DNA of 64,000 bases, from positions 17,331-81,330 of the IMG/VR virus record IMGVR_UViG_3300026382_000013; one strand, 5' to 3'. This document shows, in pieces, positions 5,842 through 16,101 of this stretch. Source of the DNA: a virus. Its lineage: Duplodnaviria > Heunggongvirae > Uroviricota > Caudoviricetes. The notes beneath the pieces were generated by a model. The model was not told the DNA's origin and did no database searches. It saw only the letters and a list, made by a program, of their open reading frames with translations. The translations under genes were made by a program, and so were the position numbers. Each line of letters begins with the position of its first letter. The stretch's first letter is position 1.

Positions 5842-7227
5842 ATGAATAAAAAAGAATTCCTATACGACACTAAACGTCTAGTATACAAAGAAGCTATTAA
5901 AGGCTTAAACCAATCGTTAGGACAATCTAAAACAGCACAAGCATCATTAGGTATGTTAGTTAATGTACCATTAGAGATTGAACTACGTAAAGTAGAGACA
6001 CTACCTAAAATTACTAAAAAGTTTAAATCTCTTGCTAGAAATGCACATATGTATTTAAAGCATGATGAAGGGACTATTGTTTTATCATTCTTCTACACAA
6101 CGGATAGAGAACTACCAAAACTTTATAAGTCTATTGAAAAAAATACACACTACTTTACATACTTATACTTTAGAGAGTTACTTATGTTATCTCGTGGGTA
6201 TAACACGTACGCTTTTTACAAAAAAGCTAAAGCAGTAATTCAGGCTAATTCGTCAATCCCTGTAGAACAATGTCAAGCTGTTATGAATATTGCTTGTTAC
6301 ATCTCTATAACTAACTTCATCTCAGATGTTTATAGTTTAGTTGGGAAATCTAGTGAATTTGAAAAAATCTCTAAATATGAAGCTTATGATTCTTCGTATA
6401 AAAACAAAGATGTCTTTAAAATTTTAAAAGCTATCTTACCTGGTATTACAACTGACTCTTTTGAGGAATTTCACACATGTGAATCAGAATTTGGTGCTAC
6501 AGCTTTTTCAGATAATAAATTAGTTAATGATGAATACGATGCTATCATTACTGATCTAGGAGAATCTGTAGAAACTACTTTCAAATCAACATCTAAAGGT
6601 TCAGCTACAGCTAGTATTTTTGGTACTGAATTTGAAGCTAACACAAAACTTAAAACTGGATGGTTCAAGAAACTAAAGAAAACTTTACAACGTATTGTTT
6701 ACTATCGTACTAATGACTTTGAGTCAACTTGGGGAAGCCTAAATTCAACATACAGACATAAGTTTAAATCTCCTAAAGCACAATACAAATCTACTGAATT
6801 AGAACTTGTATTATCTATTGACCATTCAGGATCTATGGAAATGGAAGAATTAGCACGTATTGCTGGTGTAATTAAAAAACATGGTAAATCTATTGCTAAC
6901 TTAACTATTTTAATCCATGATACTGAAATTACTAAGATATTTACACTTAAACCTTCTGAAATAGATCTTGAAGGTGATGCATTTAAAAAAGCCTTACTAA
7001 CAAGATACAATGCTGGAGGTACATCTCACTATCATGTGTTTAAATGGTTAGTTGAGAATACTACTGATATGTCTAAGCTTTTATATTTATCATACTCAGA
7101 TAATTGTTCAGACATCCCAGAATCTTATGCTAAATTTCCAACATTACGTGATGCCAATATGGTATTCGTTTCAACTATAGACAATCCAGTAAATATCACT
7201 GGAACTACAGACATTACTTTAGAGTAA
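5842..7227 (+). CDS. von Willebrand factor A domain protein (CobT-like partner of the AAA+ ATPase)
   Basis: MIDAS motif DHSGSM (DxSxS) at aa ~317. Gene order AAA+ then vWA. Confidence 0.65.
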   Translation: MNKKEFLYDTKRLVYKEAIKGLNQSLGQSKTAQASLGMLVNVPLEIELRKVETLPKITKKFKSLARNAHMYLKHDEGTIVLSFFYTTDRELPKLYKSIEKNTHYFTYLYFRELLMLSRGYNTYAFYKKAKAVIQANSSIPVEQCQAVMNIACYISITNFISDVYSLVGKSSEFEKISKYEAYDSSYKNKDVFKILKAILPGITTDSFEEFHTCESEFGATAFSDNKLVNDEYDAIITDLGESVETTFKSTSKGSATASIFGTEFEANTKLKTGWFKKLKKTLQRIVYYRTNDFESTWGSLNSTYRHKFKSPKAQYKSTELELVLSIDHSGSMEMEELARIAGVIKKHGKSIANLTILIHDTEITKIFTLKPSEIDLEGDAFKKALLTRYNAGGTSHYHVFKWLVENTTDMSKLLYLSYSDNCSDIPESYAKFPTLRDANMVFVSTIDNPVNITGTTDITLE

Positions 7228-7273: not shown

Positions 7274-7990
7274 ATGGATGAATTTCAATATAAACTAGAA
7301 CTAATAAAAGTAGAATCTCAAAAACTTACAATAAAAAGTATAGAAGATACTATACGAAATACATGTAGATCAGGATCTTACACTTTACCACAAAAATTAG
7401 ACATTAAGTCAGAACTTTATAAATTAAGTATACTCTTGAGATACTATAAACTATTCAATAAAAGATCTGCTAAATCCTTACCTCAACACATAGAAGATCA
7501 TATTATAGGAAGAACAGCATTAGTATTTAATAACACATTTTCTCATAGTATCTATGAACCACTACAAATAACTAAAAAAGAATTTGATGAATTTTTTAAA
7601 TACGCTAATATAATTCAAGTACAGTTAGAAGCAGTGGTAGTTGCTAATTATTCTAGACTAGTTGGAAAAGCTACTAAATTTCTTGATATCATAAATTATA
7701 GTTCTCTCAGCATTAAAACAAAATTTTACTACACTACACCTATAACTATAAAAGGAGAGATACGTAAAATTTCCTCTACATACGCTCTAAATAGTACCTG
7801 TGACCCCATCTCAAATATATCAGCTAAAGCAGTAGAACTTTCTATATATGCTTCTAAACTAAAGCCTACAGAATGTTATTATATAAAGCATCTACTACAG
7901 AATGATATAGGTATTACTAAAATTGATACTTATCAAAATGAGCTAGCTGCTGGTATTAGATATCTAAAAAGGCTACGAAATGCTAACTAA
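7274..7990 (+). CDS. hypothetical protein (238 aa)
   Basis: ORF preceded by a small hairpin (acctcac ttt at gtggggt) at 7238-7256. Confidence 0.5.
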   Translation: MDEFQYKLELIKVESQKLTIKSIEDTIRNTCRSGSYTLPQKLDIKSELYKLSILLRYYKLFNKRSAKSLPQHIEDHIIGRTALVFNNTFSHSIYEPLQITKKEFDEFFKYANIIQVQLEAVVVANYSRLVGKATKFLDIINYSSLSIKTKFYYTTPITIKGEIRKISSTYALNSTCDPISNISAKAVELSIYASKLKPTECYYIKHLLQNDIGITKIDTYQNELAAGIRYLKRLRNAN

Positions 7991-9413
7991 GTCTTATGCA
8001 ATATACGATATAGAGTCACATCTTATTAATGAGTGGGGAGCATACCACACTCAATATATATTCTGTATAGCTGTTAAACGTGTCATAGCTGGTGTAGAAG
8101 AGCCAACAAAAATTTATACACCTAATGCTATTCTAGATGCTGATGGAGACTTTAAACAAGCCTTAGAAGCTATTAATTCATGTGACTATAGAGTTGGCCA
8201 TAACATTACAAGATATGATGATATAGCGATGGAAGAATTAGGTGCTGTATTCACAAATAAACCATTTGATACTTTATTGTACACTCAAGTTATGTACACT
8301 AAAGACCAATTAATGTCTATGGATTATGGTATTGAAAACTTCCCTAAAGACTTATATGGTAACTTCTCACTTAAAGCCTTTGGGTACCGTCTAGGACAAG
8401 AACAAAAACTAGAATTTGAGCAATTTGATAAACTTACAACTGATATGCTGGTATACTGTAAACGTGATGTAGATGTCACGTATAATTTGTTTAAACATAT
8501 TATTAATTCTGATAGGTTACCAAATGCCTATTTAATGCAATTAGAGCACGATACATCTACAATAATATCAATGTTAGAACGTGATGGTTTTTATATGGAT
8601 AAGGATAAAGCTCGTAAACTATCTTTAAAAATGACATTAGAAATGCAAGCTATTCAAAATATGTTAGCTAAAGTATTTAAACCAATGTACTTACCAGAAG
8701 GTAAGCCACAAAAGACTAATAATACTATTAAACGTAAGCTATACATACCAAACACTGCTTATAAAGATTTATGGTACTTAAATTCATATTTCCACTTTAA
8801 GCCATATGGTAAGCCTCTGCGTAAATACAAATCTGGTAAAATAAGACATTTTGGTAAAAGAGCTTTTAAATGGTTTACCACACCTCATACAACAGTTATA
8901 ACAACTAAAGATGGTGAGTTTCAAAACATTAAGCTTACTAAATTTAAAGCTACTGATAAACAAATTATATGGTGGTTTAAAAACCTTTATAACTATACAT
9001 TTACAACCTATACTACAAAAGGTAATATACGTGTAGACAGAGATGTATTAAAAACATTTGATGAGTACTTAAAAACTAATAGAAACTCAATTACTAGATT
9101 TGCTAATTATACTAATGAAGAATTCTCAACAGAACTTGAAGCTATATCTAAACTTATGCGATTCCTTAAACTTAAAAAAGATTTATCACAATTATCTGGT
9201 ACTGATAAATCTCTATTATCAGTTCAAAGATTAGATGGTACTATCACTACCCGTATTAATCAAAATGGTACTGTTACAGGTCGAGTTACATCATCTTCTG
9301 TAAATATGAACCAAATACCTTCATCACAAGAATTTAGAGAATTATTTACAGCACCTATTATGTATACAATACCTGATAAATTATATTATGAGTTAATGGA
9401 AACACTATGTTAG
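7980..9413 (+). CDS. family-A DNA polymerase, N-terminal fragment (3'-5' exonuclease domain through the O-helix region)
   Basis: Exo I YDIES, Exo II VGHNITRYDD, Exo III YCKRD, and TGRVTSSSVNMNQIP (TGRLSSxxPNLQNIP). The frame ends just before motif A. Confidence 0.8.
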   Translation: MLTKSYAIYDIESHLINEWGAYHTQYIFCIAVKRVIAGVEEPTKIYTPNAILDADGDFKQALEAINSCDYRVGHNITRYDDIAMEELGAVFTNKPFDTLLYTQVMYTKDQLMSMDYGIENFPKDLYGNFSLKAFGYRLGQEQKLEFEQFDKLTTDMLVYCKRDVDVTYNLFKHIINSDRLPNAYLMQLEHDTSTIISMLERDGFYMDKDKARKLSLKMTLEMQAIQNMLAKVFKPMYLPEGKPQKTNNTIKRKLYIPNTAYKDLWYLNSYFHFKPYGKPLRKYKSGKIRHFGKRAFKWFTTPHTTVITTKDGEFQNIKLTKFKATDKQIIWWFKNLYNYTFTTYTTKGNIRVDRDVLKTFDEYLKTNRNSITRFANYTNEEFSTELEAISKLMRFLKLKKDLSQLSGTDKSLLSVQRLDGTITTRINQNGTVTGRVTSSSVNMNQIPSSQEFRELFTAPIMYTIPDKLYYELMETLC

Positions 9414-9667
9414 TAGATTTTAAAACTAAAGAAGACCTAATACAAGAATTTGGTATGCATGGATCAATGTACATAAAAACAAAGATAAAAACATTAGAAG
9501 ACATGCAAAGAATATTAGGTAAACGCATAAATGTAGTAGTACATAAAGATAAATACCATAAAGATGTATACATAGTACATGATTGGTACGAATATTCTTT
9601 AGATACTTTAGAAGAGCATTCAAAGCAAGAGGTATTTAATTATGCTTTTAAACATAAACTACTATAA
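9407..9667 (+). CDS. small paralog family member (86 aa, ends ...NYAFKHKLL)
   Basis: ORF inside the polymerase-interrupting element. C-terminus and 30-bp downstream sequence conserved with the 9676 ORF. Confidence 0.4.
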   Translation: MLVDFKTKEDLIQEFGMHGSMYIKTKIKTLEDMQRILGKRINVVVHKDKYHKDVYIVHDWYEYSLDTLEEHSKQEVFNYAFKHKLL

Positions 9668-9675
9668 GGATTGCT

Positions 9676-9945
9676 ATGTATTTACGATTTAAACCGCTAG
9701 AACAAATTAAAAGTGAAGCCTATGCAATAACAGTAAATGGGGATATACAATACATAAAAAATGGTGTGTGTGTACCAAAAAATATGCAATGTATATTCAC
9801 TACTAAGCCTATTAAAGTACATTATAACAGTTCTATTTCATATTTACTTGTAACACCTATCAATTATACTATTCGCAAAGATTTAGTATTAGAAGAAGAT
9901 CAACATTTATACACACAATACATGTTTAAACATAAATTACTATAA
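9676..9945 (+). CDS. small paralog family member (89 aa, ends ...QYMFKHKLL)
   Basis: ataaggattgctATG. N-terminal MxxxFKxxE and C-terminal FKHKLL shared with the 9407 ORF. Confidence 0.45.
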   Translation: MYLRFKPLEQIKSEAYAITVNGDIQYIKNGVCVPKNMQCIFTTKPIKVHYNSSISYLLVTPINYTIRKDLVLEEDQHLYTQYMFKHKLL

Positions 9946-10055
9946 AGGAATCTAATGAAAACCATAACTAAAGATCTATATGAGATATTTTTAGCTAAGC
10001 CTAATATACCTGAAGATCTAAAAAAGGAGTTGACCGATAAAGCCCATGAATCACA

Positions 10056-10880
10056 ATGGGTATTTATTGGGTCCTAACTGATTTCTCAGGACAAGAGAAT
10101 GTTAATTTAGCACACTATTTAAAACCTATAGATAACGGAAACCTTGAAAATGTAATTGAAAATGGCTCTAAAGACAATAGTACAGACCTCCATTCACTAA
10201 ATGCAATAGCATGCGGAGTAAGTAGAAGTGACTCAAAAGCCATATTTTTCGGGCTTTTATACGGTTCATCAGCAACTTTAACTGGTTTCACTATATTAGG
10301 TGACAAACTATATACAGATTACACACAAGACGAATTCGATAAGATGTTTAAAAAACTATCTAAACGAACTATAGAACTTGAAGGTACTAAATACTATCCT
10401 ATCAAAAAAGGGCAATTAGTACTATTCAATGATAAATTAATCATTCAAGCTATATTTGGATTACATGTTCAAACTAAATTACGCAAAAATACTAAAGGTC
10501 TTGAGAAACTTGAGGAACAGTTTAAACAAGAAGCTAAGACTAACGGTTATGTTGAGCTTCCTTTAGGCCGTAAGATATATATAGACTCAGACCACAAAGC
10601 CCTTAATTATTTTAACCAAGGTTTAGGTGGACTTGCTTTTAAAGTCTACTTACGTATATTTTATAATACATTATATAATAAAGGTATTTACATTAATGAG
10701 CATTATAGACTACAAGCTTGTATTTATGATGAGATTGATATAATCGCAGACCCAAATCATGTTGATACTATTGTGCAAGTTATGAATGACACTTACGAAT
10801 TAACATCTAAAGAGCTAGCACTTAATGTCAGATACACGGGAGAAACACTTAAGGGCGTAGATTGGGATTCTTGCCATTAA
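10056..10880 (+). CDS. family-A DNA polymerase, C-terminal fragment (palm motifs A, B, C)
   Basis: Motif A LTDFSGQENVNLAHY, motif B RSDSKAIFFGLLYGSSA (RxxxKxxxFGxxYG), motif C CIYDEIDII. Confidence 0.8.
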   Translation: MGIYWVLTDFSGQENVNLAHYLKPIDNGNLENVIENGSKDNSTDLHSLNAIACGVSRSDSKAIFFGLLYGSSATLTGFTILGDKLYTDYTQDEFDKMFKKLSKRTIELEGTKYYPIKKGQLVLFNDKLIIQAIFGLHVQTKLRKNTKGLEKLEEQFKQEAKTNGYVELPLGRKIYIDSDHKALNYFNQGLGGLAFKVYLRIFYNTLYNKGIYINEHYRLQACIYDEIDIIADPNHVDTIVQVMNDTYELTSKELALNVRYTGETLKGVDWDSCH

Positions 10881-10890
10881 AAGGATTATT

Positions 10891-11187
10891 ATGAAACCAC
10901 AAAGATACTTAAAAATACGCACATGGAAAGATATGGCTAAGGAGTATGGTACTAACATACATGGAGATATAACTGTTCAAGGAGTATTTCTTAAGGATAT
11001 GAAACCATTAGCAAATACAAAAATCCCAATACCAGACATTACCACATTCCTACAATACTGGGATATGTACAAAGTAGTAACTATAGCTGAAATGGATAAT
11101 GATAAATACTATATCACACTACCCATGCTTACTAAAAAATCTCAAGGTATCGTAATGACTACCCTCATGAAGTATAAAATATTATGA
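10891..11187 (+). CDS. hypothetical protein (98 aa)
   Basis: taaaaggattattATG. Confidence 0.5.
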   Translation: MKPQRYLKIRTWKDMAKEYGTNIHGDITVQGVFLKDMKPLANTKIPIPDITTFLQYWDMYKVVTIAEMDNDKYYITLPMLTKKSQGIVMTTLMKYKIL

Positions 11188-11465
11188 TAGTATTAAAACC
11201 TAAACATCTAACAATAATCTTTTTAAGTACTAATACCGAAATCCCAAAAGATGTACTGTATGGTTGGAATGAAGCTATGGCATTAAATTTATTAGCTAGA
11301 ACATTTGAGATTTATAAGATAATAATACTTAAAGAATATTTAGAATTGTATATTAAAGACATGCCTTGGACTATATCTATAAACATGCTAACAGATGAGT
11401 CTAAAACTAAAGTAACTAAATATTTATTTGAAGAAAAAGTATTACATTTAATAAAACATAAATAA
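11184..11465 (+). CDS. small paralog family member (93 aa, ends ...LHLIKHK)
   Basis: C-terminal K/H-rich tail and downstream aaacataaataaggaag motif resemble the 9407 and 9676 ORFs. Confidence 0.4.
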   Translation: MIVLKPKHLTIIFLSTNTEIPKDVLYGWNEAMALNLLARTFEIYKIIILKEYLELYIKDMPWTISINMLTDESKTKVTKYLFEEKVLHLIKHK

Positions 11466-11473
11466 GGAAGTTT

Positions 11474-13663
11474 ATGACAAAAGAACACATACAACTTAAA
11501 CAAGAACTTGATGACTATTCTTGTTTTAACTCACAACAACATCCAGCATTTGAGTATGCTATTAAATGTATAGCACAAAATGCAAATTATAAAATGAAAC
11601 TTATGATGGCAGCATCCGAACTAGTATTATTTACATCACAACTACGTAAACCTATTCAAATGTCAGATGGTACATTAGTCCCAGTAAACATTATTTCATT
11701 TATCCTAGCAGGTTCTGGAGCAGCTAAAGACTCTTCATTAGCTCAAGTACGCATAGCATTGCAAGAAGGTTACAATGTAATTGAATACAATCGTGAGCAA
11801 TCTGCTAAACAAAAAGCTAAGCACCATGCAACTGTAAATGACGGTACACCTAATAAATGGAAAGATTACTATATACCACCACCAGAACTCTTTGGAGGTA
11901 TTGGGAGTGTTGAAGGTCAAATGGATCATTGGGATACACTTCAACGTAATACATATGGAGCTGGGTACATCCAAGAATCTGAATTAGGTTCTGCTTTAAT
12001 TAACAATAAAAATATGCCTGAAAACATAGAAGCTTTATCTAAAATCTATGATGTAGGTAATATTGTGCCTAAGATTGTAAAGGCTAAAGAATTTCAAACA
12101 AACTCTATTAAAGGACTTCCAGTATCTGCTATAATGTTTGGTACAGACCAACAAGTTCTTTACAATGCTACTGCTAAACAACGTTTTAAAGACGAATTTA
12201 TAGCTAAACTTGCTAGACGTTCATTTATAGATTATAACTATGAAGATGTACCATTACCAACTTTTGATGAGGATAAAGAAGCCCGATTGGAAGCTAAACG
12301 TAAAGTACAGCAAGATGCTAAAGAAGCTAGAGACTTATTATCAGGTGAATTTGCTGATATTGCTAAACAAACTACACAAGAGCCATTAACATTATCACCA
12401 GAAGCAGAAGATATTTATTTTACATACCAAGATTATAATTTATTTGCAGCAGCTGAAATACCACATACTCATCCTATCACAGCTTTACATATTAAACATA
12501 GACACTGGAAAGCTCAGAAACTAGCTGGAGCATTAGCTATCATTGCTAAATCAGACATCATTACTGAATCTCATATGATGTATGCTGTACGTTTTGCAGA
12601 ACTTTTTACACAAGATATGTTTGATTTTGAAACTGAATTAGATAAAGAACCTTATGAATTATTTGCTGATTATATCCGTTCTAATACATCAGATACAGAT
12701 CCTAAACAATACATGAATATACATCAATTACGTAAACTTGGGTACATTAAATCAGCTAACTCTAAAGCACAATTAGAAGAGCTTATAACTAATGCGTCCT
12801 CTTATGACATGAATGGTATATACACTAAATGCGACAAAGGTATTTGTTATGAACGTATTGTCAAGACACCTGTATCTGGAATTTCTTATGTAGCTGTATC
12901 AGGTTCTAAAGAACAACGTGGAAAACAATGTGCATCTGGTTTTGTGTATGAAGAAGCTGATTTCGCAAAACTCTCCACAATTCTTAAAGGTGACTATGCT
13001 TATTCACCATTTGAATTTAAGGATGGTATACGCTCCAAAGCTAACATAATTGGTTCTGCTAAATGGATTGCATTAGATGTTGACTATGGTAAGCTTACAA
13101 TGCATGAGATGCATGAAGTCTTGCTTGAAGTTAACCACCATATTGCTCCAACATCAGATGCATCTAATGATTTCAAATACAGAATTTTACTAGAACTTGA
13201 CCAATTTGTAGATTTAGAGGACCAAGTATGGAAATACTTCGCTAAATCTATCGCTGAGGACTTTTTTATCAAACTTGATAACTTACCTAAGTCACAGATA
13301 TTCTTTGCATATTCAGCAGCTGAAGTACTGTCAGTAACGGATAAACAACCTATTGAAACTCGTGAACATATTATATTTGCTTTATCTCAAGTTGATCAAA
13401 AGAAACCCCAAAAAGAATTAACTGAAAAACAACGTAAAACACTTTTAACAGACTCGATGGAAACATTTGATTATGCTTATAATTTACCTTTTGATGGGTC
13501 TGGTGTACGTACTTTAATATCTGTAGCATTCAAAGCCAATGAACTAGGAGCTACTAAAGATGAAATACGTACAATTTTAGATGACATCAATTCATTTTGG
13601 ACTGATCCTCTACCAGCAGCTCGTATGGAGGCACAAGTATACACAATACTAGAAAGGCTTTAA
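11474..13663 (+). CDS. putative DNA primase (C-terminal archaeo-eukaryotic primase / prim-pol-like domain)
   Basis: WIALDVDYG (hhhDhD), HHIAPTS (sxH) and KYRILLELD fit the AEP motifs. The N-terminal ~450 aa are unassigned. Confidence 0.45.
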   Translation: MTKEHIQLKQELDDYSCFNSQQHPAFEYAIKCIAQNANYKMKLMMAASELVLFTSQLRKPIQMSDGTLVPVNIISFILAGSGAAKDSSLAQVRIALQEGYNVIEYNREQSAKQKAKHHATVNDGTPNKWKDYYIPPPELFGGIGSVEGQMDHWDTLQRNTYGAGYIQESELGSALINNKNMPENIEALSKIYDVGNIVPKIVKAKEFQTNSIKGLPVSAIMFGTDQQVLYNATAKQRFKDEFIAKLARRSFIDYNYEDVPLPTFDEDKEARLEAKRKVQQDAKEARDLLSGEFADIAKQTTQEPLTLSPEAEDIYFTYQDYNLFAAAEIPHTHPITALHIKHRHWKAQKLAGALAIIAKSDIITESHMMYAVRFAELFTQDMFDFETELDKEPYELFADYIRSNTSDTDPKQYMNIHQLRKLGYIKSANSKAQLEELITNASSYDMNGIYTKCDKGICYERIVKTPVSGISYVAVSGSKEQRGKQCASGFVYEEADFAKLSTILKGDYAYSPFEFKDGIRSKANIIGSAKWIALDVDYGKLTMHEMHEVLLEVNHHIAPTSDASNDFKYRILLELDQFVDLEDQVWKYFAKSIAEDFFIKLDNLPKSQIFFAYSAAEVLSVTDKQPIETREHIIFALSQVDQKKPQKELTEKQRKTLLTDSMETFDYAYNLPFDGSGVRTLISVAFKANELGATKDEIRTILDDINSFWTDPLPAARMEAQVYTILERL

Positions 13664-13664
13664 A

Positions 13665-13958
13665 ATGCAACTACCTAGAGATATCCTACAACGTTTAGTA
13701 TTTCTATATCCAGAACTTAATGCTAGTATGTACATGCATGAAATTATGTACCATTTTACGAAAGAGACTGGTATAGATATTATAATACAAGATAAAAATG
13801 TACGGACAGATGTATTGAATATACTCTCTAACTATGAATACGGAATGTATGCATTATGTGTAGAAAAAGAAGTAGATACTAATAGACCTCATAATATAAC
13901 TAGTATACACGATTACTACTACAATGTTAGTAAAGATAGGTTTGTAATATGCAAGTAA
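13665..13958 (+). CDS. hypothetical protein (97 aa)
   Basis: ORF with overlapped start (TAAAATG). Confidence 0.45.
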   Translation: MQLPRDILQRLVFLYPELNASMYMHEIMYHFTKETGIDIIIQDKNVRTDVLNILSNYEYGMYALCVEKEVDTNRPHNITSIHDYYYNVSKDRFVICK

Positions 13959-14302
13959 CATACCATAAAGACCTTACAACATTTATACGTAAATTATATT
14001 TCTTAGGTAAACATAATATACTAAATAATAGCTATTTAGAAAATGATGTATATCACCATAAATATATAGATATACATTTACCAGAGAACTCTAATGGCTA
14101 TAAGTTTTTACTAAGTACCTTACGATTTGGAGATAATACTAGTCCATTCATAGGTACTGATAATGAACACTATAAATTCTTAACAGCAAAACCTACAAAA
14201 GATTTAAGTATATTTTTAACAACTACTAAAGTATTAGATACTAATTACACAACACCTCTCTCATCACACCTAGAAAGGATACTTAATGAAACCACCACAT
14301 AA
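13949..14302 (+). CDS. hypothetical protein (117 aa)
   Basis: ORF. Confidence 0.45.
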   Translation: MQVTYHKDLTTFIRKLYFLGKHNILNNSYLENDVYHHKYIDIHLPENSNGYKFLLSTLRFGDNTSPFIGTDNEHYKFLTAKPTKDLSIFLTTTKVLDTNYTTPLSSHLERILNETTT

Positions 14303-14817: not shown

Positions 14818-15057
14818 ATGATATATCTAATAAATAGCTACACATATATTATTTATTATACTATAGTAGTGTATGTGACTTTTTACATTAAATCTTCTGT
14901 AAGCTCGTTAATAACGTACTTTCAGAAGGTTTTTATAAGGAGTAAATATTATCTAGCATATAGTGTGACAGATAACATTTACTCTATTTATGGTATACTA
15001 TGGATAAGATTTACTCCAGAGGTTTGGAGTAAGTTATTTAACTATCAAAGGACTGAT

Positions 15058-15480
15058 ATGAGTAATTATATCACTACAACACTTAAACAAAAATCAAAAC
15101 GGAGGGCTACTAATGTGTATTTAACACTTAAAGATAAAAAAGCACTTATGGAAGAATGTGGTATACCAGCTATGGTTTTATTTGAGTTTTATCTATCTAA
15201 ATCTTCATTACCTAATTATGAATATTCTGATGGGGCAACAGCAAAAGCTTTAGGGTGGACAATACATACAGTAAAAAACCATAGACTTAAACTTCAACGA
15301 GCTGGTTATTTTCTTAAAACAAAAGCTATATACACAGATGGTAGATCTTTAACACATGTATTGCTAGGCAAGGATGTGGTAACCTCTGCAAAAGAGCAAG
15401 TAGCCTTAGCACAAAAAGAACCTAATGAAACTATTACAACAGATACTGTAATAATAAATTTATTTGATAAAGAAACTTAA
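15058..15480 (+). CDS. winged-helix/HTH DNA-binding protein (initiator- or regulator-like), paralog 1
   Basis: aaaggactgatATG at 15058. The 80-aa N-terminal extension in the ORF track is low-complexity read-through of the repeat region. HTH-like ATAKALGWTIHTVKNHRLKLQRAGYF. Confidence 0.55.
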   Translation: MSNYITTTLKQKSKRRATNVYLTLKDKKALMEECGIPAMVLFEFYLSKSSLPNYEYSDGATAKALGWTIHTVKNHRLKLQRAGYFLKTKAIYTDGRSLTHVLLGKDVVTSAKEQVALAQKEPNETITTDTVIINLFDKET

Positions 15481-15760
15481 ACAAAAATCAGCTAGGAGAG
15501 CTACAATGTCATATCTACGAATGGAAGATAAAAGAAACATTATAAAAGAATGTAATGATTCAGCTGTAATACTATTTGAATACTACTTATCTAAAGCTGA
15601 TATAGATTCTTTTGAGTACACGGATGAAAAAGATGTAAGATTAAAATTACAAAAAACAGGTTACTACTTACAACGCTCAGGGGGCCTTAGAGATGGTTCA
15701 ATAGTAATATACTTAGGAAAAGATTCTTATACTAACAGAGAAATTGAGGCAAAGGTATGA
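15464..15760 (+). CDS. winged-helix/HTH protein, paralog 2 (tandem duplicate)
   Basis: Shares LKQKSxRRAT..L...DK....EC.....LFE(F/Y)YLSK....(F/Y)EY(S/T)D with paralog 1. The conserved N-terminal motif lies upstream of the SD+ATG at 15506, reachable only from TTG at 15464. Confidence 0.5.
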   Translation: MIKKLKQKSARRATMSYLRMEDKRNIIKECNDSAVILFEYYLSKADIDSFEYTDEKDVRLKLQKTGYYLQRSGGLRDGSIVIYLGKDSYTNREIEAKV

Positions 15761-16101
15761 ATGCAATAGATACTTGGAATAAACTTTTATTTGTATCTAA
15801 TTACAAAGAAAAATTAATTAATGCTAGCTATATTGAAAATAATTTACTACTGATACACTCTAGTATAGATATACATATACATACACAAAATGATGATAGT
15901 AATCTATTAAAAGAGTTACTACATACTGGTATATTTGTATATTTAGTTGATTCATACACTGGTATAGATGATGAATTGCACTATACAAGTTATTTTACTA
16001 ACAAAACTTTAAATACTCATATTTACATTATTATAAATAAAGCATTAGACTATCAATCTTCAACACCAATAAAGGATCTACTAGATGAAAGAATTACTTA
16101 A
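15757..16101 (+). CDS. hypothetical protein (114 aa)
   Basis: ORF. Confidence 0.45.
   Translation: MNAIDTWNKLLFVSNYKEKLINASYIENNLLLIHSSIDIHIHTQNDDSNLLKELLHTGIFVYLVDSYTGIDDELHYTSYFTNKTLNTHIYIIINKALDYQSSTPIKDLLDERIT

Follow-up and report, generated by a model that had tools for sequence, protein, structure and literature searches.

A T7-like DNA polymerase gene in two pieces, a candidate stop-hop before its catalytic aspartate and a family of small SH3-like proteins in an AT-rich phage

Introduction

The subject of this report is a T7-like family-A DNA polymerase gene (polA) divided into two coding pieces, here called PolN and PolC, with small open reading frames (ORFs) between and after them. 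It lies in a 64,000-nt stretch of a tailed-phage record (positions 17,331 to 81,330 of IMG/VR virus record IMGVR_UViG_3300026382_000013; Caudoviricetes), hereafter the window. The closest described system is the MobA element of T4 gene 39/mobA/gene 60. A MobA element comprises a split gene, a C-terminal extension (CTE), an endonuclease, an N-terminal extension (NTE), a take-off codon, a stop codon, a gap and a 5′ stem-loop, and such elements progressively lose the endonuclease and then the bypass while the tails persist; the bypass cassette was described as still unique outside topoisomerase-gene MobA cassettes (Manning & Atkins 2022, bioRxiv 10.1101/2022.08.31.505936).

Like the T4 element, the present locus has an essential replication gene split within a catalytic motif, an upstream piece that gains a CTE and a downstream piece that gains an NTE, in a size class of ~35–45 aa. 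A take-off codon is followed by an immediate stop and a noncoding gap, with a 5′ stem-loop and a Shine–Dalgarno (SD)-like element that are predicted here. An endonuclease lies between the pieces in some genomes (here in the relative L049; relatives are cited by handles beginning with L or P) and is lost in others, and the bypass is lost in some lineages that keep the split and the tails. Unlike the T4 element, the target is polA rather than a topoisomerase gene, the gap is 5 to 6 nt rather than 50 nt, take-off and landing codons match at two of three positions (except in L022), the tails measure 18 and 33 aa rather than the ~44 and 45 aa of MobA elements and do not seem to resemble them in sequence, and the L049 ORF resembles T5orf172/DUF723 (below threshold) rather than the HNH enzyme MobA, while the slot in the window holds SH3-like genes. 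The likeness to T4 bypass is known here from sequence and predicted structure.

Two further systems share parts of this arrangement. In nrdA of phage Aeh1, a MobE insertion splits the gene, and the CTE and NTE tails are needed for activity (bioRxiv 10.1101/2022.08.31.505936). Both systems have conserved added tails on the pieces of an enzyme gene that a free-standing element has split (putatively, in the case of polA), and the two Aeh1 polypeptides reassemble; the Aeh1 gene, however, encodes a different enzyme and has no coding gap or recoding, whereas the window lacks an endonuclease. In fractured genes, the two halves of a split intein flank a free-standing homing endonuclease (Dassa et al. 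2009, PMC2677866). The polA gene of the relative L014 has this form (PolN1 plus IntN, a 301-aa ORF, then IntC plus extein plus CTE), and P0059 looks the same, but the window is continuous at that point (GRVTSSSVNMNQIP) and the L014 intein site is 25 residues upstream of the polymerase split.

Short stop-hops have been obtained in synthetic Escherichia coli constructs, and a candidate short bypass has been noted in Streptomyces phage terminase genes; shorter counterparts of bypass have long been presumed to exist, although no natural in-frame stop-hop is known (2016 NAR review, PMC5009743). The present gap resembles these cases in its slow-to-decode stop in the A site, proposed short forward jump and SD-like element 5′ of the gap. 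It differs in that the synthetic cases use matched codons, whereas here the setting would be natural, the gene essential, the displacement +5 or +6 and the re-pairing two-out-of-three.

Results

The polymerase is encoded in two pieces with conserved tails

PolN (positions 7980–9413; all features below are on the plus strand, with coordinates of the window) is the N-terminal fragment of the polymerase and contains the exonuclease, thumb and palm up to ...FRELFTAP (Pfam DNA_pol_A_exo1 and the first part of DNA_pol_A). Alignment by tblastn to T7-like phage polymerases covers residues 8–459, and PolN homology ends at P459 (nt 9356). Beyond ...FRELFTAP the match breaks off, to be taken up again with the motif-A strand W.F.G[ST]D, and the body of PolC (10080–10880; the last part of Pfam DNA_pol_A) extends from the motif A Asp to the C-terminus (DFSGQENV...DWDSCH). 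At ~27% identity, the two polymerase ORFs align to segments of T7-like phage polymerases that directly adjoin each other, and in unsplit relatives the split site is read straight through as FTAPEGWTFVGTDFSG.

Each piece bears an extra tail. The CTE of PolN is 18 aa long (nt 9357–9410, IMYTIPDKLYYELMETLC), and every split relative retains its motif x[MY]Y.[IV][PS]D.LY..L, down to ~40% PolN identity. On the downstream side, a 40-aa leader ORF (9955–10077) with a good SD sequence encodes the NTE (~33 aa) together with the motif-A β-strand of PolC, WVFIGS, and ends in TAA. In L005, L013 and L014, the leader sequence constitutes the first ~33 residues of a continuous PolC ORF of 305–326 aa, with the pattern MK.IT.DLY...LK.EL......WVFIGSDFSGQENV; homologous NTEs are present in L005, L008, L013, L014, L022, L025, L049 and P0138, and the element ...LK.EL... 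is conserved across lineages. Both tails retain ~40–70% identity across relatives. A sequence-only reading of this DNA had taken the unit at 9957 for a truncated member of the small-protein family sharing its N-terminal pattern; it has no family similarity (z 0.07–1.2) and is the PolC leader. The program's own call for PolC, 10056–10880, starts at an AUG that lacks an SD sequence.

PolC is under strong constraint, with a ratio of nonsynonymous to synonymous substitution rates (dN/dS) of 0.04 against L005. In L008, PolN directly abuts the leader (ATGA) with nothing between. Because no Rfam intron is detected, PolN ends in a stop at 9411, the pieces abut in L008 and the same model finds introns elsewhere in relatives, polA here, of the T7-like type, is genuinely a gene in pieces with a conserved extra tail on each piece, and contains no intron or intein at the split. 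The "two-frame" polymerase noted for S-TIP37 was considered and set aside, as it concerns a different site, the exonuclease/polymerase boundary.

A stop-containing gap precedes the catalytic aspartate

In the window, the leader is read as ...W V F I G S up to a TAA stop, and the catalytic Asp codon GAT (10080) lies 5 nt after the Ser codon in a different frame. The candidate recoding site (10072–10079) consists of the take-off codon TCC (Ser, 10072–10074) and a 5-nt insert TAACT (10075–10079), that is, the stop codon TAA plus CT. The same insert occurs in the independent assemblies L002 and L028, both reading TCC TAACT GAT. Other lineages carry variants of this gap. L008 and L010–L012 have a 5-nt insert in ACT TAGCT GAT, L022 and L025 have in-frame 6-nt inserts in ACT TAAACA GAT and ACT TAATCA GAC, and L049 has a 5-nt insert three codons further on, after D-F-S, in TCC TGACT GGA. 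Protein sequences suggest further gap cases in P0125, P0127 and P0140, whose gap types, like those of P0131 and P0149, are judged from protein only. In all five lineages, skipping of the insert restores the exact consensus W.F.G[ST]DFSGQE. The landing triplets ACU, GCU, ACA, UCA and ACU share positions 2–3 with the take-off codons UCC, ACU, ACU, ACU and UCC. The gap-bearing polC genes have dN/dS of 0.03–0.04, and because of this strong purifying selection they must be translated.

The sequence 5′ of the gap has features in common among these lineages. An SD-like AAGGAG (10024–10029) lies inside the leader at the 5′ base of a predicted RNA hairpin (10033–10071; arms 10033–10046 and 10057–10071) of 14 pairs, whose 3′ arm ends beside the take-off codon and whose outer helix pairs 10028–10031 with 10076–10079. 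AAGGAG is present in all gap-bearing lineages (L008, L010, L022, L025, L049) and absent in the gapless L005 and L013. The window hairpin has a predicted folding energy of −16.9 kcal/mol (z −4.5 in one run and −3.3 in another), and in all gap-bearing sequences the ~45 nt 5′ of the take-off codon are predicted to fold as a hairpin (−14 to −21 kcal/mol, z −2.3 to −5.2). Its position shifts along with the take-off site in L049, and it is weak or absent in gapless relatives. Across five aligned sequences, 87% of cells are paired, versus 27–57% in slid controls, and three pairs are changed on both sides. Gap-bearing sequences keep 12–13 of the 14 pairs, split gapless sequences 8–9 and unsplit sequences 1–3.

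These data suggest a +5/+6 stop-hop as the best single explanation of the gap. PolC would be completed by a 5-nt forward hop over the stop, with take-off at UCC, landing at ACU and resumption at GAU. Two elements would favor this jump: the upstream hairpin, through its refolding behind the ribosome, and the SD-like AAGGAG, which the hairpin would bring beside the take-off site. The predicted product is ~306 aa, with the junction ...HESQWVFIGSDFSGQENVNLAHYLK and the peptide AHESQWVFIGSDFSGQENVNLAHYLK.

Several other decoding routes were considered. The window encodes only tRNA-Met, tRNA-Asn and tRNA-Ser(GCU), which offer no suppressor or unusual tRNA for the gap. Sequence inspection of the 22-nt overlap revealed no canonical −1 slippery heptamer; a −1 shift would give the junction ...WVFIGVLTDFSGQ. 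Initiation after the hairpin was rejected, as no in-frame start codon occurs within 30 nt past 10080. DNA-pattern scans of IMG/VR returned no match for the 5-nt gap variants and, for the 6-nt gap, only the L022 contig and four chance matches.

Some observations count against the hop. Only L022 has cognate codons at take-off and landing (ACU to ACA), position 1 being mismatched elsewhere; the DNA evidence comes from five lineages that are not fully independent; and we know of no natural precedent for a +5 hop. The hairpin could instead serve attenuation or coupling. In the 5-nt variants, moreover, an in-frame AUG or UUG eight codons upstream (10056 in the window) could permit termination–reinitiation, which for these variants is a serious rival.

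In that alternative, ribosomes terminate the 40-aa leader at TAA 10075–10077 and step back 22 nt to reinitiate in the PolC frame at AUG 10056 (UUG in L008); the product, of 274 aa, starts MGIYWVLTDFSGQ (MGIYWVLT-DFSGQE), and the hairpin only couples the two ORFs. A start codon is indeed found at this place in all 5-nt variants whose insert precedes the Asp codon (window, L008/L010, P0125, P0127, P0140), it is buried in the hairpin and so would be opened only by leader translation, and back-scanning reinitiation over ~20–40 nt is known in bacteria. However, conservation of the Trp codon makes a start codon here almost unavoidable (N-TGG, in the frame one base earlier), and AUG 10056 has no SD sequence. 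Reinitiation would also turn the conserved motif-A strand into a frame-shifted pseudo-strand. L022 and L025, with in-frame 6-nt gaps, and L049 have no usable start, yet hairpin and stop persist in them and their downstream ORF is intact and conserved. We regard reinitiation, and the product it predicts, as rather unlikely.

The slot between PolN and PolC and the origin of the split

The space between the two polymerase pieces is occupied differently in related phages. In the window and the L001/L005 lineage it holds two small genes, A and B, which belong to the SH3-like family described below. L014 has one family member in the slot (P0016) and L007 has a different one (at least one copy). In L008, L010–L012 and L013, the slot is empty. 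In L049, likewise without family members, it contains a 248-aa ORF (1670–2416) that resembles homing endonucleases (sub-threshold matches to T5orf172, DUF723 and treble-clef domains). No family member was detected in 222 kb of polymerase neighborhoods of more distant relatives. One member with the same C-terminal motif, P0022, stands in another genomic context, with no adjoining polymerase within its 2.9-kb contig. The copy number of the family at the polN/polC slot varies between related phages, being 0, 1 or 2, and the variation sought among relatives when the small ORFs were first noticed is therefore present. Given these slot contents, the small genes look like accessory passengers, not the agent that split polA. 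A single entry of a family member into the slot, in the common ancestor of the phages with at least 62% PolN identity, would have been followed by duplication.

The split itself would have been made by a mobile cassette of the T4 MobA/gene 60 type, consisting of a tail, a homing endonuclease, a leader and a short coding gap. The endonuclease would since have been lost here, and an SH3-like gene would have moved into the vacant slot and duplicated (A and B, with D and E downstream). The PolC of L049 is 76–79% identical to unsplit relatives and 47–54% identical to other split ones, while its NTE is 41–47% identical to other NTEs, a contrast that suggests that the cassette moves horizontally. If any mobile entity shaped the locus, we infer that it was this cassette of tail, endonuclease, leader and gap, not the small ORFs. 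It must be set against this origin that the window has no endonuclease between the pieces, the cassette being reconstructed from relatives. We offer the combined proposal tentatively, as a possibility with somewhat less than even chances: polA was split by a horizontally moving cassette, the 5- or 6-nt gap is decoded by a stop-hop driven by the hairpin and AAGGAG, and A and B are later squatters.

The position of the small genes might instead be functional, with the SH3-like proteins acting as dedicated subunits of the split polymerase that hold PolN and PolC together via the CTE and NTE, or as a processivity or replisome adaptor. Family members do lie between PolN and PolC in four lineages (62–100% PolN identity), the small genes are translationally coupled to the polymerase fragments, and the fold matches described below are to SH3-like and Mind bomb REP domains, which are peptide binders. 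Against this, L008, L010–L013 and L049 have split polymerases with the same CTE and NTE but no family member nearby, P0022 is not beside a polymerase on its contig, and the paralogs evolve quickly (dN/dS 0.3–0.5 versus 0.04 for PolC). A dedicated subunit role is improbable on this evidence.

A family of small SH3-like proteins

The sequence-only reading had noticed three ORFs of ~90 aa, at 9407–9667, 9676–9945 and 11184–11465, and these exist with the lengths and ends it gave. They are indeed duplicated paralogs, although the family has four members in the window, the one at 10891–11187 having been overlooked. ORF A (9407–9667, 86 aa, ending ...NYAFKHKLL) starts in overlap with the PolN stop (ATGTTAG). 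ORF B (9676–9945, 89 aa, ending ...QYMFKHKLL) is a divergent member with its own SD sequence (AAGGA). ORF D (10891–11187, 98 aa, ending ...LMKYKIL) is the most canonical, and ORF E (11184–11465, 93 aa, ending ...LHLIKHK), which overlaps the D stop (ATGA), is the most divergent. The alignment of E to the family is limited to its C-terminal half, and its motif homologous to the family C-terminus is LFEEKVL, six residues before its end.

BLASTP between the paralogs alone is not significant (E 0.4–0.5), while local alignment against shuffled sequences gives z 5.5 for A–B, 4.8 for A–E and 4.6 for B–E, each with 0 of 500 shuffles reaching the score, and A–D is also within z 4.5–5.5. A hidden Markov model built from outside sequences only ranks D (1e-19), A (2e-12), E (1e-3) and B (2e-2) as the top four of the 245 window ORFs, the next scoring 0.4. 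Probabilities from hhalign against the family profile are 98.7% for D, 97.5% for A, 81% for E and 92% for B, and at most 0.6% for eight control ORFs. P0016, the slot member of L014, bridges A (z 9.7), D (z 14.7) and E (z 7.2), and B joins via A. Although BLASTP alone is not significant, the matches in profile searches secure the homology of the small ORFs.

A word-indexed search of 5.8 billion proteins recovered only the four proteins, a variant of A with 98% identity and, from a related phage, an ortholog of each of the four; these orthologs lie in the same order on short contigs. The A ortholog P0006 is 70% identical with dN/dS of 0.51, and the B (P0005), D (P0007) and E (P0008) orthologs give dN/dS of 0.33, 0.29 and 0.50. 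Because dN/dS is 0.29–0.51 at dS of 0.35–0.80, with conserved C-terminal halves, A, B, D and E are expressed and selected proteins; they are under moderate purifying selection and evolve ~10 times faster than PolC (dN/dS 0.3–0.5 versus 0.04). The synteny of the orthologs at this dS indicates vertical inheritance.

An exhaustive profile search of 1.84 billion representative proteins gave 49 matches at E ≤1e-3, three of them obvious repeat-protein noise, which leaves ~45. Outside members are mostly 76–105 aa, and some proteins hold two to four tandem copies. These outside proteins have in common V+I+TW.DM..E[FY]G...G.I.C..F...M..LCG...[WY].IS.DM, and the core motif of the family that includes A, B, D and E is V+I+TW.DM..E[FY]G...G.I....F...M..L.G...[WY].IS.DM. 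AlphaFold2 models reach a predicted local distance difference test score of 81.7 for A and 92.5 for D, and fold searches with the predicted structures match domains of the SH3-like and Mind bomb REP kinds. All four window proteins belong, as diverged paralogs, to a single uncharacterized family of ~80–100 aa with a predicted SH3-like fold. On L029, a 103-aa ORF (188–499) directly upstream of P0022 resembles, by eye, a very divergent tandem copy (VKLKPL...G..LPLFGT.IEI...FYFSIEWL).

Database annotation adds little to this picture. None of the four proteins matches Pfam, PHROGs, NCBIfam or PADLOC, and matches of A to Cpf1_PI and DUF7869 (E ~4e-3) are below the cut-off and were treated as noise. 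No window protein matches Pfam SH3_15 (PF18346, the Mind bomb SH3 repeat; gathering cut-off 24 bits), and outside relatives score 17–27 bits, mostly below that cut-off. A PDB sequence search with the family profile returned only noise (Calcium-binding protein 1, CaBP1, E 0.3–0.5), Foldseek against viral structures gave no match below E 0.1, and tblastn with D and the canonical member P0030 found no match in GenBank phages. The earlier observation that no nuclease motif is recognizable, extended here to the homing-endonuclease classes HNH, GIY-YIG/T5orf172, LAGLIDADG, Endo VII and VSR, is borne out by these annotation searches and by the family alignments, which show no conserved set of His, Asp or Cys residues; in the intron ORFs of relatives, the annotation searches do recover Endonuclease_7 (8.5e-22) and HNH_3.

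SH3-like and Mind bomb REP domains bind peptides. The small proteins may be nonenzymatic adaptors, dispensable for the split polymerase itself, in which a β-barrel and a C-terminal amphipathic helix ending in K.KLL would bind a protein or peptide partner in replication or host take-over.

The initial observation also included a near-identical 30-bp motif after the stops of A and B, interpreted as the end of a small mobile or duplicating cassette that carries start signals for the next gene. What A and B share is 21 nt (TTTAAACATAAAYTACTATAA) in which each ORF encodes F K H K L L and its stop (9647–9667 and 9925–9945), identical at 20 of 21 positions. These are the only matches in 64 kb at up to three mismatches, with 0.06 expected, so the motif does not recur elsewhere in the window. 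The probability that two independent encodings of FKHKLL plus stop differ by at most 1 nt is 0.036 under window codon usage, and the near-identity is mildly unusual, not striking. The Leu codons of A, B and their orthologs A′ and B′ differ synonymously (CTA CTA / CTA TTA / TTA CTA), and distant family members end ...FEHKLL, ...IENKLL and ...EKKLL. Because of these synonymous changes in orthologs and the similar ends in distant members, the constraint acts on the peptide and not on the DNA. The remaining ~10 nt after the repeat are AAGGA, a spacer and ATG, an ordinary ribosome-binding site and start codon. Start signals for the next gene are thus present, but as generic ones, since an SD core (AGGA, GGAG or GAGG) stands upstream of 43 of the 64 window genes; for this second half, the motif is the ubiquitous start signal that had been named as grounds for rejecting it. 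Its supposed recurrence at 11452 amounts to a 9-mer, AAACATAAA, which occurs four times versus 2.4 expected by chance.

Duplication of the small ORFs stands, whereas no evidence of their mobility was found and the DNA motif is not a cassette end. A reading in which the ~90-aa ORFs themselves are a mobile or duplicating cassette with a 30-bp end could draw on the slot copy number of 0, 1 or 2 across lineages, on P0022 (ending ...EHKLL), whose surroundings, in a phage of the same sample, are unrelated, and on the 20 of 21 nt shared by the 3′ ends of A and B. Those 21 nt are, however, the codons of a peptide motif conserved in distant members and the rest is a generic start signal; no terminal or flanking repeats were found around the small ORFs, which lack any nuclease, integrase or transposase signature; their orthologs are syntenic with substantial dS; and the family is absent from the 222 kb of polymerase neighborhoods of more distant relatives. 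This reading is already disfavored, and we consider it very improbable.

Introns, inteins and other elements in the polymerase genes of relatives

The two ORFs described as lying inside the polymerase gene are located between two separately translated pieces, not in an intron- or intein-like insertion. An Rfam cmscan of 9250–10200 at E ≤10 gave no match to Intron_gpI, a model that scores 64 bits in L022 and 75 bits in L025 on true introns. An intein is excluded by the stop at 9411; in addition, the CTE begins with Ile where an intein would begin with Cys or Ser, and CTE and NTE total ~51 aa, short of the ~130 aa or more of a HINT domain. True inteins in relatives (P0055 and L014) occupy a different site, TSS/C...GN/S (slashes mark boundaries). 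It is hardly conceivable that A and B are carried inside a group I intron or intein that interrupts polA, even though the polymerase halves are in the same frame with 702 nt (3 × 234) between them, ...CCU/ and ...AUG/ would be acceptable group I boundaries and real introns and inteins do occur in this gene in relatives. Apart from the missing Intron_gpI signal, only ~160 nt are noncoding, stops in all frames preclude an intein, the CTE and NTE are conserved as protein and L008 has the same split without any intervening sequence. The notion that the small ORFs are not genes and resemble each other by chance, for which the nonsignificant BLASTP values and the bias of an AT-rich, Lys-rich genome toward K/H-rich protein ends might be cited, is already refuted and has next to no probability, given a second phage's orthologs of all four (dN/dS <1, C-terminal halves conserved), profile matches to ~45 outside representatives, confident AlphaFold2 models and negative hhalign controls.

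The polymerase genes of relatives carry several elements of their own. In L007 (P0055, 2845–4674), whose PolN is 70% identical and which has the same FTAP split and CTE, a mini-intein of ~130 aa is found at GRVSS/C...TGN/SSINVNQIP. L014 (6001–8788), and also P0059, has a candidate naturally split intein in polA: PolN1 of L014 ends inside the N-part of the intein (CLPLDY...DTLVL, then a stop), the 301-aa ORF follows, and the next ORF, of 92 aa, encodes IntC (...ITGN), SSINMNQIPSSKEFRELFTAP and the CTE.

Motif B is a second site of insertion. In L028 (385–1400) and L002 (4840–5235), which are 98–100% identical to the window, PolC is interrupted at AIFFG/LLYGSS by an insert that encodes a 257-aa Endonuclease VII-family protein (Pfam 8.5e-22) and that is absent from the window (~10250). 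Because sister strains carry the insert and the window does not, this mobile element is polymorphic in the population. L022 (4237–4533) and L025 (295–597) have true group I introns (Rfam 64–75 bits) at the same site. The motif-B insert of L010–L012 (~6620–6950) contains no ORF in L010, an HNH_3 ORF in L011 and an Endonuclease_7 ORF in L012, with PolN identical in all three.

Motif A also shows oddities. In L024 (~1640–1700), the Trp position is an in-frame TGA (...KNEP TGA TFIGTDFSGQE), reflecting either decoding of TGA as Trp in that phage or host or another recoding event. Three sequences available as proteins only (P0131, P0149, P0142) have the odd motif-A starts LFVGKKYSGQE, ...ALTFLSSGQENV and MDFAGQENV. 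In LFVGKKYSGQE the Asp appears to be replaced, ...ALTFLSSGQENV possibly has a frame break inside DFSG, and MDFAGQENV has, on protein evidence, a start codon directly before the Asp.

Genomic context

The gene order PolN+CTE / A / B / NTE-gap-PolC / D / E / primase forms a single, tightly packed operon, closed by a DNA primase/helicase gene (11474–13663; PHROG 2135 DNA primase, E 8e-81). The window is phage-like with 34% GC, all genes of the replication block lie on the plus strand, and the genes of this AT-rich phage's replication operon are translationally coupled. With 7980–11475 as query, blastn in "distant" mode found no match in GenBank phages; IMG/VR scans with PolN alone or A alone, and a scan of GTDB genomes, found no relative; a metagenome scan returned six loci. 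The phage carrying the locus is novel and AT-rich.

Two further paralog pairs lie downstream in the window, 14818–15480 with 15464–15760 (BLASTP E 4e-18) and 13949–14302 with 15757–16101 (6e-5), just beyond the locus, so that local gene duplication is common in this genome. Two genes upstream of PolN, a 461-aa protein (5842–7227) matches PHROG 1314 "HNH endonuclease" (E 4e-9). Its gene is in synteny in L002, L007 and L014, and the protein, which has a DxSxS-like motif (SIDHSGSM), is probably a conserved replication-module protein, not a mobile endonuclease. The clade with 42% identity has, three genes downstream of the polymerase genes, an RVT_1 reverse-transcriptase gene (243 aa) that adjoins a UvrD-like helicase gene (L008 10308–11039, L010 9606–10337, L011 8369–9100).

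Discussion

Taken as a whole, the account given here (split polA, four paralogs, cassette origin, adaptor role and 5-nt hop) is the best explanation of the locus, and we hold it with fair confidence. By itself, the paralog family would be a modest advance: it is unnamed and rare (~45 representative clusters among 1.84 billion), and it duplicates and diverges fast inside a replication operon. The split of polA matters more, in that an essential polymerase is made from two polypeptides and its catalytic Asp is reachable only past a 5-nt stop-containing insert. If the combined proposal of a horizontally moving cassette and a stop-hop is true, a second and independent bypass-cassette family would join that of T4 gene 60, and this locus would hold the first short stop-hop known in nature from an essential gene. 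A compact gap of 5–6 nt with a simple hairpin, an SD-like element and natural variants (5 nt, 6 nt in frame, shifted and lost) would suit tests of mRNA refolding behind the ribosome as a driver of forward sliding, and the system would help to show how selfish elements immunize their own target sites.

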